Virus record (IMG/VR): IMGVR_UViG_3300027503_000002
DNA: 64,000 bases
DNA from: a virus
Direction: 5' to 3' (one strand)
The notes beneath the pieces were generated by a model. That model had not been told where the DNA came from. It saw nothing but the letters and a program-made list of their open reading frames with translations, and did no database searches. Positions 3,329-12,893 of the stretch are shown here, piece after piece. Numbering within the stretch: position 1 is the first letter of the stretch; each line of letters starts with the position of its first letter. The position numbers were made by a program, and so were the translations under genes.

Positions 3329-5545
3329 ATGCCCATTGAAACAAAGTTTAGAGTCTATATCTCTGCTAGTGGGCAATCATACGATTTAAGCGGACTTTTT
3401 CAGGATCTTGGAACGGCTGGAACAGCGGCATCGACGACTAATTTTAAGGTTGGATCATCAGATTTAAATACAATATTCCACGCATCAACAAGTGAAGGCG
3501 ATAGAATATCCTTTAATACAGGATTTAAAGTCAATGGCACAGATTTAAAAAATATTTTTCGCAAAAGGACTACGCTAGAGATAACAACCCAACCAACTAA
3601 CCAAACTGTATTAGAAACTAATACAGCGACATTCACAGTGGCAGCTACAGGTAGTGGAACTCTGCTTTATCAGTGGCAAAAGTATAATACTGGCACCAGT
3701 AATTGGGATAATCTATCAAACTCGTCTGGAGAAATAGCAGGCGCAACATCCACAACGCTGCAAATTTTAAATGCAGACTACCCAACTGATGAAGGCTCTT
3801 ACAGATGTGTAGTCACTGACGACTCTGGTTCGATAGAGAGTAATTCCGCAACCCTGACTGTAAATTATCCGCCGACAATCACCGTTCATCCAACGTCTAC
3901 GGTTTACAACGACGCAGATGCGGTGACTTATTCAGTAACCGCTACAGAAGGCAAGCCAACAGGATTAACTTACAAATGGCAGAGGTCAACAAACGGCGGG
4001 AGTTCTTGGTCAGATCTTAGCGCTGGACAAGAGACTAATATAAGCGGAATAACATCGGCTACGCTGACATTTAACTGTCAATTAGCAAGAGCAGATTACC
4101 AGTACCGTTGCGTAGTTAGCAATAGTGCCGCCAGCGTAAACTCAAATGCCGCGATTCTGTATATTAACCCAAAGATTACTACAGAACTACCTTCTACCAA
4201 GACAGTTACGGTTCTCAGTGGTCAGGAAACTGTATTGGCGGTATTTACAGTTGTTGCTGGAGGTTCAGCAACACTCAGCTATCAATGGTACAAAGACGGC
4301 TCTCCAATCGGGGCAAATAATCCATCTTTTGCAGATACTGTTGATGAAGACAGTAATGGTTCGCAGTATTACTGTGTAGTATCGTCTTCTGCTTCTGGCA
4401 CAACTCCAGACACATCTGTTACTTGCACTCTAACCGTAAACCTGACCGCCATCTCAATCTCCAGCTTCTTGGGCAATGGCGTTGCTAATCCAACGGTAAA
4501 CGAGGGCGCTTCTCTATCTTATGTCGTAACAGCGGCTGGTGCAGGAACTCTTAATTATGATTTCTATAGAAGAGACTACACTTCTAGACCTAGCTCCTAC
4601 ACTGATGTCTTGGTTCAAAGCTCAAGCTCAAACACATATACCCATAATGTAGCTTTATCAGAACACGATAGCGATTTCTTTTGCGCTGTTTCTAGTACAA
4701 AGACCTCGTTGGGAACTGTAAATAGTTCACTTTCAACACTTACTGTCAATTATGTTAGTATTAGTGAGGTTGTCGTCGATGAAGATGGTGCCCAAACTGC
4801 ACTGACGTACAACGAACAGTCTTTTGATGTCGATGTTGGTGACGTAGTAAAATTAATAATTACTGCTTCTGGAAGACCTGGGGTTAATTATCTCTGGAAG
4901 AAATGGAACGGATCTACCTATGTCACGTTCAGTGGGGCTCATATAAGTGGTCAATCAACAGCGCAGCTTCAATTTAATACAATTCTTGAAAGCGATGAGA
5001 CTTACTATGCGTGCTATGTAGATAATGGTGCTGGAATTACGGCAAATACAGAAGGAACTAGAGAAGTTTATTTAAATGTTATAGCCGTAACTACAACCAC
5101 AACTACAACCACAACTACTACGACAACCACTACAACTACTACAACTACCACTACCGAGGAGCCAACTACTACAACCACCACAACTACTACAACTACCACA
5201 ACAGCTGCTCCAAGCCCGAGCCCAAGTCCAAGCCCAAGTCCAAGCCCAAGTCCAAGCCCGAGCCCAAGCCCGAGCGCAAGTCCAAGTCCAAGCCCAAGCT
5301 TGAGCGCAAGCCCAAGCGCAAGTCCGAGCTATAGCTATAGCAATAGCCCGAGCGCAAGTCCAAGCGCAAGCAATAGTCCGAGTAGCAGCCCAAGTGACAG
5401 TCCAAGCTCTAGTTCTAGTAGTAGCTCAAGCTCAAGCTCAAGTTCTAGCTCAAGTTCTAGCTCTAGCTCTAGCGAAAGTAGTAGTCCTAGCAGCAGTAGC
5501 AGTACCAGCGAAAGCGGAAGTGGTAGTCCAAGCGCTAGCGGTTAA
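3329..5545 (+). CDS. Multi-Ig-like (I-set) domain protein with mucin-like Thr/Ser/Pro C-terminal tail; putative virion surface protein or fibre adhesin
   Basis: About 5 Ig-like units (YQW...D.G.YRCVV...S..ATLTV pattern). The last ~150 aa are poly-T, (SP)n and poly-S. Confidence 0.8.
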   Translation: MPIETKFRVYISASGQSYDLSGLFQDLGTAGTAASTTNFKVGSSDLNTIFHASTSEGDRISFNTGFKVNGTDLKNIFRKRTTLEITTQPTNQTVLETNTATFTVAATGSGTLLYQWQKYNTGTSNWDNLSNSSGEIAGATSTTLQILNADYPTDEGSYRCVVTDDSGSIESNSATLTVNYPPTITVHPTSTVYNDADAVTYSVTATEGKPTGLTYKWQRSTNGGSSWSDLSAGQETNISGITSATLTFNCQLARADYQYRCVVSNSAASVNSNAAILYINPKITTELPSTKTVTVLSGQETVLAVFTVVAGGSATLSYQWYKDGSPIGANNPSFADTVDEDSNGSQYYCVVSSSASGTTPDTSVTCTLTVNLTAISISSFLGNGVANPTVNEGASLSYVVTAAGAGTLNYDFYRRDYTSRPSSYTDVLVQSSSSNTYTHNVALSEHDSDFFCAVSSTKTSLGTVNSSLSTLTVNYVSISEVVVDEDGAQTALTYNEQSFDVDVGDVVKLIITASGRPGVNYLWKKWNGSTYVTFSGAHISGQSTAQLQFNTILESDETYYACYVDNGAGITANTEGTREVYLNVIAVTTTTTTTTTTTTTTTTTTTTTTEEPTTTTTTTTTTTTTAAPSPSPSPSPSPSPSPSPSPSPSASPSPSPSLSASPSASPSYSYSNSPSASPSASNSPSSSPSDSPSSSSSSSSSSSSSSSSSSSSSSSESSSPSSSSSTSESGSGSPSASG
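5090..5542 (+). repeat. Low-complexity coding repeats: poly-Thr (ACN)n, Ser-Pro (CCAAGC/CCAAGT)n, poly-Ser
   Basis: Directly visible tri- and hexanucleotide repeats with variable third positions. Confidence 0.95.
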
Positions 5546-5548
5546 TTT

Positions 5549-10807: not shown

Positions 10808-11730
10808 AAATACTTTACATAACCCCACACTTGTCAACTGGGGGATTGCCTCAATATCTTTTAAAAAAGATTCAATCTTTAAAAGAAAATGAGATCTGGT
10901 GTATTGAATATAATTTTGTATCAGACAAATACACGGTTCAGAGAAATCAGGTTCTAGATCTTTTAAAAGACAAGTTTATTTCTTTAGGTAGTCAACCAAA
11001 AGAAAGGCTATTAGATTTAATAACGCAAATCGGGCCAGATGCAATTCATTTTGAGGAGTTTCCAGAAACCTTTGTATCTCACGAAATGCTGTATAAAATA
11101 TACGGTAAAGACAGGCGGTATTTGATATTTGAAACCAGTCATGGAATTTATTACAAGCCTCAAAGCAAAATCTTTCTGCCAGATAAGTTTATTTTTGTTT
11201 CTGAAATGCAGGCTGAAATGTATGGCAAGATGGGTGTTGGATATGAGATACTGGAATATCCAATAGATTTTAAAGACCCTAATAAAGCATTTAAAAAAGA
11301 ACTGGGATTCAAAGACGATGTAAAGCACGTATTAAATATTGGACTTTTTACTCAGGGTAAAAACCAAAAAGAGTTGATCGAGTACGCGCGCGCGCTTGAG
11401 GGCGAGAAGATCCAATTTCACTTTGTAGGTAATATGGCCGTTAACTTCAAGGATTATTGGGAGCCGATCTTAAAGAATCTCCCAAATAACTGTTTGATCT
11501 GGGGTGAAAGAAATGACGTTGATAAGTTCTATCAGGCTGCTGACTTGATGGTTTTTACCTCTAAAAGAGAAACGTCGCCGCTTGTTATCAGAGAGGCTTT
11601 GTCTTGGAAACTGCCGTGTTTGATTTATAATCTTCCAGCCTATAAAAATATGTATGATAAATTTGCTGGAGTTAGCTATTTAAAAGAGGGCGCTTTTAAG
11701 GAAAATCTCAAGAAGATCAAAGCTATATGA
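10804..11730 (+). CDS. GT4-like (GT-B) glycosyltransferase
   Basis: ITPHLSTGG, IGLFTQGKNQ, FYQAADLMVFTSKRETSPLVIREALSWKLP. Confidence 0.85.
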   Translation: MKILYITPHLSTGGLPQYLLKKIQSLKENEIWCIEYNFVSDKYTVQRNQVLDLLKDKFISLGSQPKERLLDLITQIGPDAIHFEEFPETFVSHEMLYKIYGKDRRYLIFETSHGIYYKPQSKIFLPDKFIFVSEMQAEMYGKMGVGYEILEYPIDFKDPNKAFKKELGFKDDVKHVLNIGLFTQGKNQKELIEYARALEGEKIQFHFVGNMAVNFKDYWEPILKNLPNNCLIWGERNDVDKFYQAADLMVFTSKRETSPLVIREALSWKLPCLIYNLPAYKNMYDKFAGVSYLKEGAFKENLKKIKAI

Positions 11731-12893
11731 GAGATACTCTGCTTAATATTTATTCAAAAACAGAAAAATCATTTAAGGAACCAAGGAGGGCACAAAATAC
11801 AATTGAAGTGTCGTTTCTTGATTCAGCCAAAGTATCCATAAACGGCCCAATTGATCAGAGCTATACAGTAAAGTTTATTAATAATAAGACTGGCGAAATT
11901 ACCTACTCTTCTGAAATTAAGAATAATATGTGGTCTAAATCAACGATCCCGTATTACATTGAGTGGCGAATTCTTGTTGAGTCTGGCGGTCAAGCAATAT
12001 TTGATCAAGTTTTAAATCTTAAGGATAAGAAAGTATTGGTAGTTATAGACTCGCAGAGTCTTGGCGATATTTTGGCTTATGTTGGCCAGATTGACCGCTT
12101 TCAAACAAAGCACGGTTGCAAGTTAGATGTTTTGGCGCTGAATAAAGAGTTGGCGGAAATCCTAAATCTATCATACGAGAATATCAATTTTATTTCAGAT
12201 TTTAGCTATAAAGAGGACTACTATGCAATTTATAAGATAGGTTATCCATTGGAGAACTGGCAGAGCAGAAACCCAATCGATCCACGCACAATTCCTCTGC
12301 AACAAGTAGCTAGCTCAGTTCTTGGGCTAGATTTTAAAGAAGAAAAGCCGATTTTAACGTTTCAAAATTCAACCAAGAAGCATAAAAAATACGTTACTAT
12401 CGCTACTCAAAGCACTGCTCAGTGCAAGTACTGGAACAATGAGAAAGGTTGGGAGACACTAATAAATTATTTAAATAGCAAGGGATACGATGCTTGGTGC
12501 ATTGACCGCTTCCCTGTTTTTGGTAATGAAAAACAAAAGATGAACTTTATCCCCAAGGGGGCTATAGATAAGACTGGAAACATTCCACTAGAGGTCAGAA
12601 TGTCGCAAATCTATAATTCTGAATTTTTTATTGGTTTAGGATCGGGACTATCTTGGTTAGCTTGGGCGCTGAATAAGCCAACCGTATTAATTAGCGGATT
12701 CAGCAAAGCTTTTGCGGAGTTTGAGACCCCTTACCGAATCATTAACGACTCTGTGTGCAATGGGTGCTGGAACGATCCTAGCCTTAAATTTGATAAGGCT
12801 AACTGGATGTGGTGCCCCAGAAATAAGAACTTTGAGTGCTCGTCCAAGATAACCCCAGAAATGGTTATCGAAAAGATCAATACTCTACTTTGA
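11727..12893 (+). CDS. Aah/TibC-family (autotransporter strand-loop-strand) protein O-heptosyltransferase
   Basis: PYYIEWRI, SLGDILAY, IATQSTAQCKYWNN, GLGSGLSWLAWA, VLISGFS..FAEF.TPYR, and the four-Cys iron finger CNGCWND...WCP...FECS. Confidence 0.85.
   Translation: MRDTLLNIYSKTEKSFKEPRRAQNTIEVSFLDSAKVSINGPIDQSYTVKFINNKTGEITYSSEIKNNMWSKSTIPYYIEWRILVESGGQAIFDQVLNLKDKKVLVVIDSQSLGDILAYVGQIDRFQTKHGCKLDVLALNKELAEILNLSYENINFISDFSYKEDYYAIYKIGYPLENWQSRNPIDPRTIPLQQVASSVLGLDFKEEKPILTFQNSTKKHKKYVTIATQSTAQCKYWNNEKGWETLINYLNSKGYDAWCIDRFPVFGNEKQKMNFIPKGAIDKTGNIPLEVRMSQIYNSEFFIGLGSGLSWLAWALNKPTVLISGFSKAFAEFETPYRIINDSVCNGCWNDPSLKFDKANWMWCPRNKNFECSSKITPEMVIEKINTLL

Follow-up and report, generated by a model that had tools for sequence, protein, structure and literature searches.

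A putative virion-surface glycosylation island in the tail-fibre operon of a large river phage

The DNA analysed here, a window of 64 kb, belongs to a large, uncultured river phage and holds a putative glycosylation island within its tail-fibre operon. Our preferred reading, to which we assign a probability of roughly 0.58, is that this island is hypervariable and acts at the virion surface, its enzymes modifying an Ig-domain protein encoded in the slot just ahead of them (the slot protein), with the mucin-like tail of that protein as the main acceptor. Judging from comparisons with related phages, among which slot protein and enzyme cassette are swapped jointly, the phage probably covers its own virions with glycans.

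Gene order and the slot protein

The ORF map places nine genes between positions 3,329 and 12,893, all on the plus strand, as are the fibre gene ahead of them and the weak hairpin behind them; the map agrees exactly with the gene run described in the initial annotation. The gene for a 939-aa tail fibre protein (508–3,327), with fn3 and a C-terminal Peptidase_S74 intramolecular chaperone (Pfam S74, 1.3e-11; fn3; PHROG tail-fibre families), stops 1 nt ahead of the slot gene (3,329–5,545). From the slot gene onwards, spacers of 3, 1 and 2 nt are followed by five 4-nt overlaps, such that the first enzyme gene begins 3 nt past the slot gene and the eight enzyme genes are translationally coupled. 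The GC content of the cassette is 31–35%, versus 40–43% in its flanks. A consensus scan for terminators returned 13 sites where 11.9 are expected by chance, none of them convincing within 493–12,893, in agreement with the earlier remark that no terminator is apparent in this interval. A weak hairpin with a U7 run directly 3' of the last stop codon (12,892–12,920; −6.3 kcal/mol, z −1) would at most make a marginal end for the operon, and the nearest strong hairpin after the last gene lies at 13,276–13,297. River metatranscriptome contigs with ≥99% identity map to the fibre gene, the slot gene, its junction with the first enzyme gene and the cassette, which we count as weak evidence.

The slot protein (738 aa) consists of a short N-terminal domain, a series of Ig repeats and a C-terminal tail rich in Ser, Thr and Pro. 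The N-terminal domain (aa 1–84; 3,329–3,580) contains three x-DL-xx-[IF]F repeats and is presumed to be an attachment, or anchor, domain. It is the sole part common to all variants of the slot protein (alignment A4) and aligns with the C-terminal domain of the mucin-like protein of relative L003 (pairwise E 3e-8); searches of PHROG and Pfam found no family for it. The stalk (aa 84–583; 3,578–5,077) comprises about five Ig-like domains (Pfam Ig_3 1.1e-19, I-set 2.8e-18, Ig_2 2.1e-14), with PHROG matches to tail and Hoc-like decoration families. In the tail (aa 584–738; 5,078–5,545), which runs from poly-T through (SP)n/(SA)n to poly-S, 130 of 155 residues (84%) are Ser (70), Thr (36) or Pro (24), against a background of 18% over the ORFs of the window. 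The Ig protein with a T/S/P end of about 150 residues noted earlier is therefore as described, and among the window's ORFs of ≥60 aa it alone has a 30-aa stretch with ≥80% S/T/P. Its tail draws on varied synonymous codons, with Ser codons of both families, and TRF matches reach no more than 69–83%, which argues for selection on the protein rather than a DNA slippage run. We regard the tail as a candidate O-glycan acceptor.

No TM-like segment was detected in ten proteins, including the eight enzymes and the slot protein. Pfam/NCBIfam and segment checks of the proteins of the locus likewise revealed no gene for a lipid carrier, transferase initiator, flippase, polymerase or exporter. Soluble enzymes lacking such partners fit direct cytoplasmic protein glycosylation. 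No ADP-heptose pathway genes were seen in the scanned parts of the window. Elsewhere, the phage carries further sugar genes, namely Gmd and a ColD-like gene, a GT90 and a second GT cluster.

Enzymes of the cassette

The last gene (11,727–12,893; 388 aa) encodes an Aah/TibC-family (BAHT) protein O-glycosyltransferase. It scores 348 bits against TIGR04414 (cut-off 200) but ≤24 bits against LPS heptosyltransferase models, and aligns with TibC (4RAP) over residues 29–385 (E 1.5e-70). Residues D114, T230, K234, W310 and C344/C347/C363/C371 are invariant in alignment A1, so that the catalytic Asp, the sugar-binding residues and the four iron-finger Cys, as defined in PMC4358343, are all kept. By these sequence measures, the product belongs to the Aah/TibC family of protein O-glycosylating enzymes and retains their full catalytic machinery, and the label it had been given earlier is upheld. 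The family name does not imply that this enzyme heptosylates the tail, because in the characterised cases BAHT enzymes modify Ser within the strand-loop-strand motifs of folded autotransporter beta-helices (PMC4358343) and not in disordered tracts.

The preceding gene encodes a GT4 glycosyltransferase (10,804–11,730; Pfam 56.8 bits), the conserved partner of the BAHT enzyme. It is 76–85% identical across all members of the clade, has orthologues of the window type in 24 of 44 viral BAHT loci, and matches the NCBIfam SdgA/SdgB models far below their cut-off. In seven lineages (L032, L036, L039, L050, L052, L061 and L067), GT4 and BAHT are fused into a single polypeptide, and the nearest relatives of the window's BAHT in the metagenome library are mostly fusions of 600–2000 aa. 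Some BAHT homologues, that of L050 for one, sit in giant-virus MAG contigs.

The six remaining enzymes precede this pair. The first, a soluble candidate GT-B-type glycosyltransferase (5,549–6,610; 353 aa), has no match in Pfam, NCBIfam or PHROG and a weak GT-B profile match (PseG 3HBM, E 0.024); an orthologue in the L003 cassette is 50% identical. Its Atlas features lie at 0.97 to clusters in which 10–60% of members carry PF05159; the earlier KpsS-like label (KpsS/Capsule_synth) is a lead only. The other enzyme labels stand. A RimK-type ATP-grasp ligase (6,612–7,547; 311 aa), assigned by Atlas features of 0.96–0.97 and structural TM scores of 0.6–0.75 to RimK/ATP-grasp clusters, probably amidates a sugar carboxylate or adds amino acids. 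It is followed by a TylF-type SAM O-methyltransferase (7,550–8,332; Pfam TylF 25 bits, cut-off 23; PHROG methyltransferase 2.9e-27) and a GT8 glycosyltransferase (8,329–9,108; Pfam 39.9 bits, cut-off 24.3). Next is a fusion (9,105–9,983) of an N-terminal domain resembling L-rhamnose-binding lectins (E 7.9e-14) with a GT-A glycosyltransferase (AF2 pLDDT 89; Foldseek SpsA/TarP, prob 1.0), which has an invariant E-H-D motif; the database contains at least 464 matches to its family, which has no name. The GT2 glycosyltransferase that follows (9,980–10,807; Pfam 38 bits) is, like the GT4, above its Pfam cut-off, and the cassettes of L003 and L025 contain orthologues of it.

Co-variation of repeat proteins and enzymes

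Tight linkage between BAHT genes and fibre proteins with Ser/Thr-rich repeats is seen across viruses. In 20 of 40 viral BAHT clusters, a protein with an S/T/P tract or G-X-Y repeats is encoded within 10 kb, and at least 7 clusters have the start of a (G-[ST]-S)n protein 57–95 nt downstream on the same strand; the other half have no repeat protein in the flank examined. The reverse test used 46 contigs picked solely for a (G[ST][ST])n repeat: BAHT was present in 15 of them and in 6 of the 8 records that were ≥60% complete, compared with a background of 4 in 50,697 GenBank phages and 0 in 14 control genomes. The repeat gene lay ≤4 kb from BAHT in 6 of 12 repeat-picked contigs, and the cultured Microcystis phage Mel-JY01 has the same layout. 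Such tails are absent from eight distant phage loci that encode an Ig protein but no BAHT.

Among syntenic relatives of the window, proteins of the right flank are 80–97% identical while the pairs of slot protein and cassette differ. The GT4–BAHT core is retained, and slot protein and other enzymes are exchanged jointly, in a sample of about nine lineages. The poly-T/(SP)n/poly-S tail of this phage is accompanied by 6 extra enzymes. In L003–6/L215, the same anchor domain bears an S/T/P tract of 335 aa, and 10 extra genes are present, among them those for GT2, TylF, a sulfotransferase, a GT32-like enzyme and a KpsS-like protein. In L025, the anchor is joined to a poly-T/ST tail without Ig domains, and methyltransferases and a GT29-like enzyme are among the products of 7 extra genes. 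The tail of the closest relatives (L002/L022/L024) is (TP)n(EP)n, with Thr and Pro but no Ser, and comes with a GT resembling O-FucT and an oxygenase (PF13640) resembling prolyl hydroxylases. In L007–9, the fibre is collagen-like (GYT/GDT/GPD) and is accompanied by a double GT2 and an oxygenase of PF13640. Overall, poly-S/T tails pair with 6–11 extra enzymes; the prolyl-hydroxylase-like oxygenase accompanies (TP/EP)n tails and, in one case, a collagen-like fibre that contains Pro.

The initial annotation had asked whether the tail co-occurs and co-varies with the GT cassette. The joint swapping of repeat protein and cassette, with an enzyme content that follows the chemistry of the repeat, gives a largely positive answer. 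The pairing does not hold for L017/L018/L019, which have an Ig protein without a tail, nor for L016 and L214, which have a GPQ/GAQ collagen-like protein without Ser/Thr, yet all of these retain GT4 and BAHT. Together with the Ser-free tails of the closest relatives, these lineages show in part the pattern that the initial annotation had named as speaking against its proposal, and its interpretation is partly supported. The tail is thus not proven to be the acceptor: the core must have another one in these lineages and may have one here.

Competing readings and known systems

From sequence comparison, such an alternative acceptor in this phage may be the fibre protein (508–3,327), itself a candidate, the Ig domains or the anchor domain, with the tail serving as a flexible spacer or entropic bristle. 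We consider this possible but unlikely. It would account for the lineages that keep the core beside a slot protein without an S/T-rich tract, and fibre homologues occupy this position in every checkable syntenic lineage (L002, L007, L013, L016, L017, L019, L024, L025 and L202). PT/EP repeats are, moreover, classic rigid linkers, and the folded beta-helical repeats so far known as BAHT acceptors (PMC4358343) point the same way. Left unexplained, however, is why P4H-like oxygenases occur with the collagen-like GYT/GDT/GPD fibre of L007 and with (TP/EP)n tails, why poly-S/T tails come with large cassettes, and why BAHT is linked virus-wide to (G[ST]S)n proteins.

That the cassette instead remodels host envelope glycans (LPS core or capsule), for example in superinfection exclusion, beside a coincidental mucin-like neighbour, is improbable in our view. 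GT2, GT4, GT8 and GT9-type families and the KpsS-like lead are typical of LPS or capsule pathways, the low-GC island resembles O-antigen islands, the enzymes of LPS-core synthesis are also soluble or peripheral without TM segments, and the phage has its additional sugar genes. Yet the last enzyme strongly prefers the protein-specific BAHT model over LPS heptosyltransferase models, an initiating phosphoglycosyltransferase, flippase, polymerase and exporter are all missing from the locus, and the cassette is translationally coupled to late fibre genes and co-varies with the adjoining repeat protein. Modification of phage DNA or of a small molecule is very improbable: glycosyltransferases of DNA-hypermodifying phages are well known (cited in PMC12619734) and the ATP-grasp ligase and methyltransferase could tailor a metabolite, but BAHT family membership, the position inside a fibre operon, the lack of a hydroxymethylase nearby and the repeat-protein linkage across viruses all speak against it.

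Under the preferred reading of virion-surface glycosylation, the operon would yield, late in infection, the fibre, the slot protein with its anchor, Ig stalk and disordered Thr/Ser/Pro tail, and eight soluble enzymes. The conserved GT4 and the Aah/TibC-type enzyme would act in the cytoplasm, straight on protein, drawing on nucleotide sugars rather than a lipid carrier. The GT-B-like, GT8, lectin-GT-A and GT2 enzymes would then lengthen the glycans, and the ATP-grasp ligase and O-methyltransferase would decorate or cap them, most likely with the Ser/Thr-rich tail as main acceptor. The anchor domain would bind the slot protein to the particle and the glycan brush would be displayed at the end of the Ig stalk. 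Acceptor and cassette would be exchanged jointly between close phages, much like O-antigen loci, which suggests diversifying selection on what the particle surface displays. From these genes we infer glycan production, the residues modified, heptose as the first sugar, virion location and a biological role; functions in shielding, mimicry or anti-grazing are speculation.

The proposed system has several counterparts. In Gram-positive serine-rich-repeat adhesins (GtfA/GtfB with accessory GTs; SdgA/SdgB on SD repeats), a long Ser-rich repeat substrate encoded beside soluble, GT4-initiated GTs receives O-glycans stepwise in the cytoplasm, and the GT set varies by strain. The phage locus likewise sets a Ser-rich repeat gene next to a soluble GT set, but it lacks a GtfB-type chaperone and accessory Sec, includes BAHT and is viral. 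Mimivirus fibril glycosylation clusters, and chloroviruses with their prolyl 4-hydroxylase and capsid glycans, represent viruses with their own multi-enzyme machinery and sugar-nucleotide pathways. Relatives of our phage similarly pair collagen-like or Pro-rich substrates with a viral hydroxylase, whereas giant viruses have eukaryotic hosts and other enzyme families and, to our knowledge, no reported BAHT core. The slot protein resembles T4 Hoc-type decoration proteins in its array of Ig-like domains, which would project from the particle, and in its Hoc-like PHROG match, but differs in having an x-DL-xx-IF N-domain unrelated to the Hoc capsid-binding domain, in the place of its gene in the fibre rather than the head module and in its mucin-like tail.

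The last enzyme is closest to Aah/AIDA-I and TibC/TibA, the bacterial autotransporter heptosyltransferases (BAHT; PMC4358343), with which the phage BAHT shares a full-length TibC alignment, the catalytic Asp, the sugar-binding Thr/Lys/Arg/Trp and the four iron-finger Cys. Those enzymes are cytoplasmic, act straight on protein and are encoded beside their substrate, which in the phage is presumed. They modify an autotransporter, of which there is none in this phage setting, and a beta-helix, whereas the candidate here is a disordered S/T/P tract (in other viruses, collagen-like G[ST]S). The phage BAHT is also paired, and elsewhere fused, with GT4 inside a multi-enzyme cassette, and Pro300 of TibC, the determinant of D,D-heptose selectivity, is Gly in the phage enzyme. 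Virion glycosylation itself is already known in mycobacteriophages, and this locus would be a variant of it. As summarised in PMC12619734, Freeman et al. 2023 demonstrated glycans experimentally on C-terminal extensions of capsid and tail-tube subunits, and phage GTs adjoin structural genes there as they do here. The mycobacteriophage systems comprise few GTs and capsid or tail-tube acceptors, whereas the predicted one of this phage has eight enzymes including BAHT and modular swapping, and its acceptor would be a protein of its own, belonging to an Ig-stalk decoration or to a fibre and ending in a mucin-like tail of 155 aa.

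An Aah/TibC-type gene at the end of a phage enzyme cassette

The window comes from a large uncultured river phage, with siphovirus-type tail genes, a DNA polymerase, a ribonucleotide reductase and a Clp-like ATPase among its genes, and its sequence is contained in 14 riverine metagenome runs. Megablast of positions 1-13000 against GenBank phages returned no match, and the relatives of the window helicase in GenBank phages are distant (<30% identity). A plus-strand tail fibre gene (508-3327), recognized by matches to fn3 and Peptidase_S74 chaperone domains, is followed after 1 nt by the ORF 3329-5545 and, 3 nt further on, by eight plus-strand enzyme genes with spacers of 1-2 nt or 4-nt overlaps, ending at 12893. 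This cassette (5549-12893) forms a low-GC island (31-35% GC vs 40-43% in the flanks). The initial annotation had placed an Ig-domain protein with a Thr/Ser/Pro tail 3 nt ahead of eight coupled genes and had seen no terminator from 493 through 12893; the former was confirmed (130 of the 155 tail residues are Ser, Thr or Pro), and our terminator search likewise gave nothing convincing inside the operon. A marginal hairpin with a U7 run lies directly 3' of the last stop codon, beyond which the next ORF is on the opposite strand. Further out, a GC-rich hairpin at 13276-13297, whose 9-bp stem is perfect and flanked on either side by T-runs, is a predicted bidirectional terminator between an HSP20-like gene (13303-13662, minus strand) and the ORF 12877-13257 (minus strand).

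River metatranscriptome contigs at least 99% identical to the window fall on the fibre gene, the Ig gene, the junction between the Ig stop and the first enzyme gene (5418-5762) and several cassette genes; being contigs, they say nothing about expression level or strand and cannot show population indels, bins free of RNA are uninformative, and DNA carry-over is possible. Such cover is more continuous and deeper over the minus-strand block 13200-16500 (HSP20, a glycosyltransferase (GT) at 13681-14781, SSB and dUTPase) than over the fibre/cassette operon, which fits early or middle genes, contig depth being a poor measure.

Judged from its sequence, the product of the last cassette gene (11727-12893) is unambiguously a member of the bacterial autotransporter heptosyltransferase (BAHT, Aah/TibC) family. 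BAHTs transfer heptose from ADP-heptose and form dodecamers; none of the window ORFs that we scanned was recognized as a gene of the heptose pathway. The gene scored 348.3 bits against TIGR04414 (curated cut-off 200) and at most 24 bits against LPS heptosyltransferase models, and its product aligned end to end with TibC (4RAP; E 1.5e-70, residues 29-385 vs chain 27-384). In TibC, the catalytic Asp110, the sugar-binding Thr226, Lys230, Arg286 and Trp305, and the iron-finger Cys339, Cys342, Cys358 and Cys370 are essential (PMC4358343). The catalytic and sugar-binding residues align with D114, T230, K234, the Arg of PLEVR and W310 of the window protein, and the iron-finger cysteines (C344, C347, C363, C371) are invariant in 6/6 sequences of our viral BAHT alignment (A1); the sugar-binding Arg is missing from two distant viral homologues (L011 and L012). 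Together, profile score, alignment and conserved essential residues bear out the earlier Aah/TibC-type label. The position of TibC Pro300, which enforces D,D-heptose selectivity (PMC4358343), is occupied by Gly in the window enzyme. No autotransporter substrate with the beta-helical strand-loop-strand Ser motifs was found beside the gene, whose neighbours are the fibre, the Ig/mucin-like protein and GTs.

Most of the other enzyme labels first proposed for the cassette also stood. The GT4 (10804-11730), GT2, GT8 and TylF-type methyltransferase all exceeded Pfam cut-offs, and the plus-strand gene 6612-7547 was identified as a RimK-type ATP-grasp enzyme by Atlas features and structure. The lectin-GT (9105-9983, plus strand) combines a rhamnose-binding-lectin-like N-domain (profile E 7.9e-14) with a GT-A catalytic domain (SpsA/TarP fold); its family is unnamed, with at least 464 database matches, and its alignment-based AF2 model reached pLDDT 89, while a single-sequence AlphaFold model was unusable (pLDDT 41.6). 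Single-sequence PDB searches with the 5549, 6612 and 9105 products gave nothing useful. The exception is the KpsS-like label of 5549-6610, which remains an Atlas lead: its product had no Pfam match (including PF05159 Capsule_synth), its likeness to KpsS/KpsC is one of Atlas features, to clusters with PF05159 in 10-60% of members, and a profile of 31 homologues had PseG as its sole, weak structure match (E 0.024), so that it is at most a GT-B-like candidate from its sequence. A partial homologue of this product (P0154, 56% identical) is labelled as from a Candidatus Fonsibacter ubiquis (freshwater SAR11) MAG, a weak hint at host or gene source. All ten proteins are free of membrane-like segments (maximum 19-aa Kyte-Doolittle hydropathy <1.6), Pfam and NCBIfam searches of 5549-12893 revealed no initiating phosphoglycosyltransferase, Wzx/Wzy flippase/polymerase or ABC exporter, and the cassette does not have the make-up of a lipid-linked surface-polysaccharide (LPS O-antigen/capsule) cluster.

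Further sugar genes lie elsewhere in the window. At 19586-22114, a GDP-mannose 4,6-dehydratase gene (Pfam 352 bits) adjoins that of a PLP enzyme whose best solved relative is the GDP-4-keto-6-deoxymannose 3-dehydratase ColD (2GMS, E 3e-46) and which has the ColD-type His-His in place of the Schiff-base Lys; the pair is predicted to give the phage a colitose-type deoxysugar pathway of its own, which could supply donors for the glycans. Directly after the Gmd gene comes a GT90-family protein (22111-23061; PF05686, a family of eukaryotic protein O-glucosyltransferases). A second GT cluster (42926-46013) encodes a 641-aa GT4-like protein with DUF4214, followed by a 391-aa protein; the former weakly matches, below threshold (E 0.02-0.05), the first, N-terminal stretch of LPS heptosyltransferase (GT9) models and the N-terminal part of the latter matches the C-terminal region of a GT9 model, and the two may be a split GT9.

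The slot protein and its exchange among relatives

The 738-aa product of 3329-5545, which we call the slot protein, begins with an 84-aa anchor domain of three x-DL-xx-[IF]F repeats, evident from alignment and without a family in a PHROG search, and continues into a stalk of about five Ig-like domains (Ig_3, I-set, Ig_2). Its PHROG matches were phrog_2973 and phrog_4069 (Hoc-like) and phrog_3995 (tail protein), and its tandem Ig-like domains would make it a Hoc-like Ig decoration protein. The C-terminal 155 aa run from poly-T through (SP)n/(SA)n to poly-S, an S/T/P tract unique within the 64-kb window. The DNA encoding this tail uses mixed synonymous codons, including both Ser codon families, and the composition is therefore selected at the protein level. 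As in mycobacteriophages, phage GTs adjoin structural genes and a candidate virion protein carries a C-terminal extension. Searches for the Ig protein in the full contigs of four relatives found no match, and eight distant phage Ig-protein loci without a BAHT had no such S/T/P tails.

We compared the window with a syntenic phage family drawn from IMG/VR and JGI contigs, to which a metagenome scan added only two informative loci. The right flank of these relatives (HSP20, a GT, SSB and dUTPase) is 80-97% identical in protein sequence to that of the window, and GT4 and BAHT are present in every one, whereas the stretch from the conserved fibre gene to the GT4 varies in its slot protein as well as in its enzymes. 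The window, with its anchor, Ig stalk and poly-T/(SP)n/poly-S tail, has six extra enzymes. In L003-6/L215 (upstream region, L013), a 424-aa slot protein with a 335-aa S/T/P tract and the same anchor domain, here C-terminal, accompanies ten extra genes, including GT2, KpsS-like, TylF, GT32-like and a Nucleotid_trans-sulfotransferase fusion; in L025, the anchor bears a poly-T/ST/TTPP tail without Ig domains, with seven extra genes that include GT2, methyltransferases and a GT29-like gene. A third group (L002/L022/L024) has the same Ig protein (38-92% identity) with a (TP)n(EP)n tail devoid of Ser, next to a PF13640 prolyl-hydroxylase-type 2OG oxygenase and a GDP-fucose protein-O-fucosyltransferase-like GT (the latter missing in L022), and in a fourth (L007-9) the fibre is collagen-like (GYT/GDT/GPD) and is accompanied by a PF13640 oxygenase plus a double GT2. 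Hydroxylase-like enzymes thus accompany (TP/EP)n tails and the collagen-like fibre of L007, and poly-Ser/Thr comes with large glycan-tailoring sets; this tracking of repeat chemistry by the enzyme set is the strongest argument that the cassette acts on the slot protein.

Two enzymes of sister phages, the Nucleotid_trans-sulfotransferase fusion (L003, 7915-9078) and the GT29 (sialyltransferase-family) protein (L025, 6099-6659), suggest sulfated and ulosonic-acid-bearing glycans. PF13640 oxygenases, which in the window's relatives adjoin the (TP/EP)n tails (L002, 6774-7934) and a Pro-containing collagen-like fibre (L007, 6684-7247), were also seen in L057, L064, L070, L078, L080 and L081; in viral BAHT loci outside the window's relatives they flank loci for (G-[ST]-S)n fibres.

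The proposed co-variation of tail and GT cassette was upheld insofar as slot and enzymes change together, but five relatives run counter to it. L017, L018 and L019 have anchor-Ig slot proteins without a tail, and L016 and L214 have GPQ/GAQ collagen-like slot proteins whose repeats lack Ser/Thr, yet all keep the window-type GT4 and BAHT, and the core therefore has an acceptor that is not mucin-like, at least in those phages. In L016, L017 and L019, the window GT4 has its orthologue in the N-half of the preceding protein (651-676 aa); another candidate, the GT4 half of the GT4::BAHT fusions of L017 and L064, was ruled out by BLASTP.

Viral BAHTs and Ser/Thr-rich repeat fibres

Searching with a profile built from six viral BAHTs brought up at least 100 viral contigs, and the 80 analysed, together with the window copy, formed 40 clusters at 80% identity. 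In half of these clusters (20/40) the flank encodes an S/T/P tract or a G-X-Y repeat protein, and in at least seven a (G-[ST]-S)n protein begins 57-95 nt 3' of the BAHT on the same strand, with Ser and Thr occupying 75-100% of its X/Y positions; bacterial BAHT genes are arranged in the same way with their autotransporter substrates (PMC4358343). In the BAHT tree, repeat-protein labels fall in two to three clades, the S/T/P label marking the window's clade and its sister. In the reverse direction, >120 viral contigs matched a degenerate DNA pattern that encodes seven G-[ST]-[ST] triplets. Among the 46 pattern-selected contigs with searchable full records, 15 encode a BAHT (13 above the curated cut-off), as do 6/8 of the pattern-selected records that are at least 60% complete, and in 6/12 of the BAHT-encoding pattern contigs the (G[ST][ST])n gene is within 4 kb of the BAHT. 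The background frequency was 4/50,697 GenBank phage records and 0/14 control genomes. Long (G-[ST]-[ST])n proteins are themselves very common in viral contigs (IMG/VR loci L082-L201), with repeats of up to >1300 residues per ORF, and seem to form a class of Ser/Thr 'collagen-like' fibres that has gone unstudied.

The window GT4 has orthologues at 24 of 44 representative BAHT loci, and in seven lineages GT4 and BAHT are one polypeptide, which argues that the two act together. In a library of 1.84 billion proteins represented at 50% identity, the BAHT family comprised 765 clusters at E 1e-30 or better; the closest 150 all outscore TibC, and most of these are multidomain proteins or fusions of 600-2000 aa. 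One of the four BAHT-encoding GenBank phage records is that of a cultured phage of Microcystis elabens, Microcystis phage Mel-JY01 (L223, PP395634), for which our literature search found no paper. The genome begins with a plus-strand (G-[TS]-S)n collagen-like ORF (1-3052) that is open for at least 1016 aa and runs off the record start; next come a Ser-rich 'structural protein' and then a 1226-aa enzyme with an N-terminal GT4 and a C-terminal BAHT. GenBank places two hypothetical CDSs opposite to the repeat ORF, probably a mis-annotation of a low-complexity fibre gene.

Predicted virion glycosylation, its rivals and known systems

We favour, with a probability of about 0.58, a mechanism and ALTERNATIVES in which the operon would provide a late-expressed, cytoplasmic and lipid-independent O-glycosylation line for a virion-displayed repeat protein, built on a conserved GT4 and BAHT core to which interchangeable tailoring enzymes are added. 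The main rival shares the glycosylated virion and differs in the acceptor, which would be the fibre or else the Ig or anchor domains of the slot protein, leaving the tail as a spacer. The tail-less relatives and the known beta-helix preference of BAHTs speak for such an acceptor, but it leaves the co-variation of slot protein and cassette unexplained, and we consider it unlikely. Family assignments and gene context fit poorly with either of two further readings: that the cassette remodels the host envelope is improbable, and that it modifies DNA or a small molecule is more improbable still.

Beyond the window, we tentatively extend O-glycosylation of a displayed repeat protein, at somewhat less than even odds for the whole, to many aquatic phages and some giant viruses. 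In these, a GT4 and an Aah/TibC-type enzyme, often fused, would O-glycosylate Ser/Thr-rich repeat fibres, namely (G-[ST]-S)n collagen-like rods, mucin-like tails and GxT collagens, and the acceptor repeats would be swapped as matched modules with their tailoring enzymes (prolyl-hydroxylase-like oxygenases, sulfo-, methyl- and sialyl-type transferases and ATP-grasp ligases), yielding a strain-variable glycocalyx. The swapping seen between strains speaks for diversifying selection acting on a surface that is recognized by something; shielding, reversible adhesion and colloidal behaviour are candidate, speculative roles of the glycan brush. The proposal is directly testable, because the cultured Mel-JY01 has the same core beside such a fibre. 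If the island of the window functions in the proposed way, phage surfaces bear a hypervariable glycan layer, with consequences for host range, for adsorption to particles and mucus, for grazing, for how therapeutic phages are recognized by the immune system and for the annotation of viromes, and the enigmatic (G-[ST]-S)n 'collagen-like' fibres common in aquatic viromes gain a biochemical explanation. To our knowledge, BAHTs have not been described outside the virulence adhesins of enteric and Burkholderia pathogens, and the family would gain a much larger, mostly viral branch.

Phage particles are usually regarded as bare protein, and among eukaryotic viruses self-encoded virion glycosylation has been shown for giant viruses and chloroviruses. 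For mycobacteriophages it is established, according to PMC12619734 (citing Freeman et al. 2023). The principle is therefore not new. A literature search found no paper linking a collagen-like protein, phage and heptosyltransferase; as far as the literature searched shows, what is new is a BAHT-type enzyme in the role of core, the way in which it is paired with or fused to a GT4, the candidate acceptors of mucin-like and (G[ST]S)n type, the exchange of acceptor and enzymes as matched modules, and the size of the family's viral branch. Were the wider proposal to hold, virus particles would carry a strain-variable glycan coat comparable to the bacterial O-antigen.
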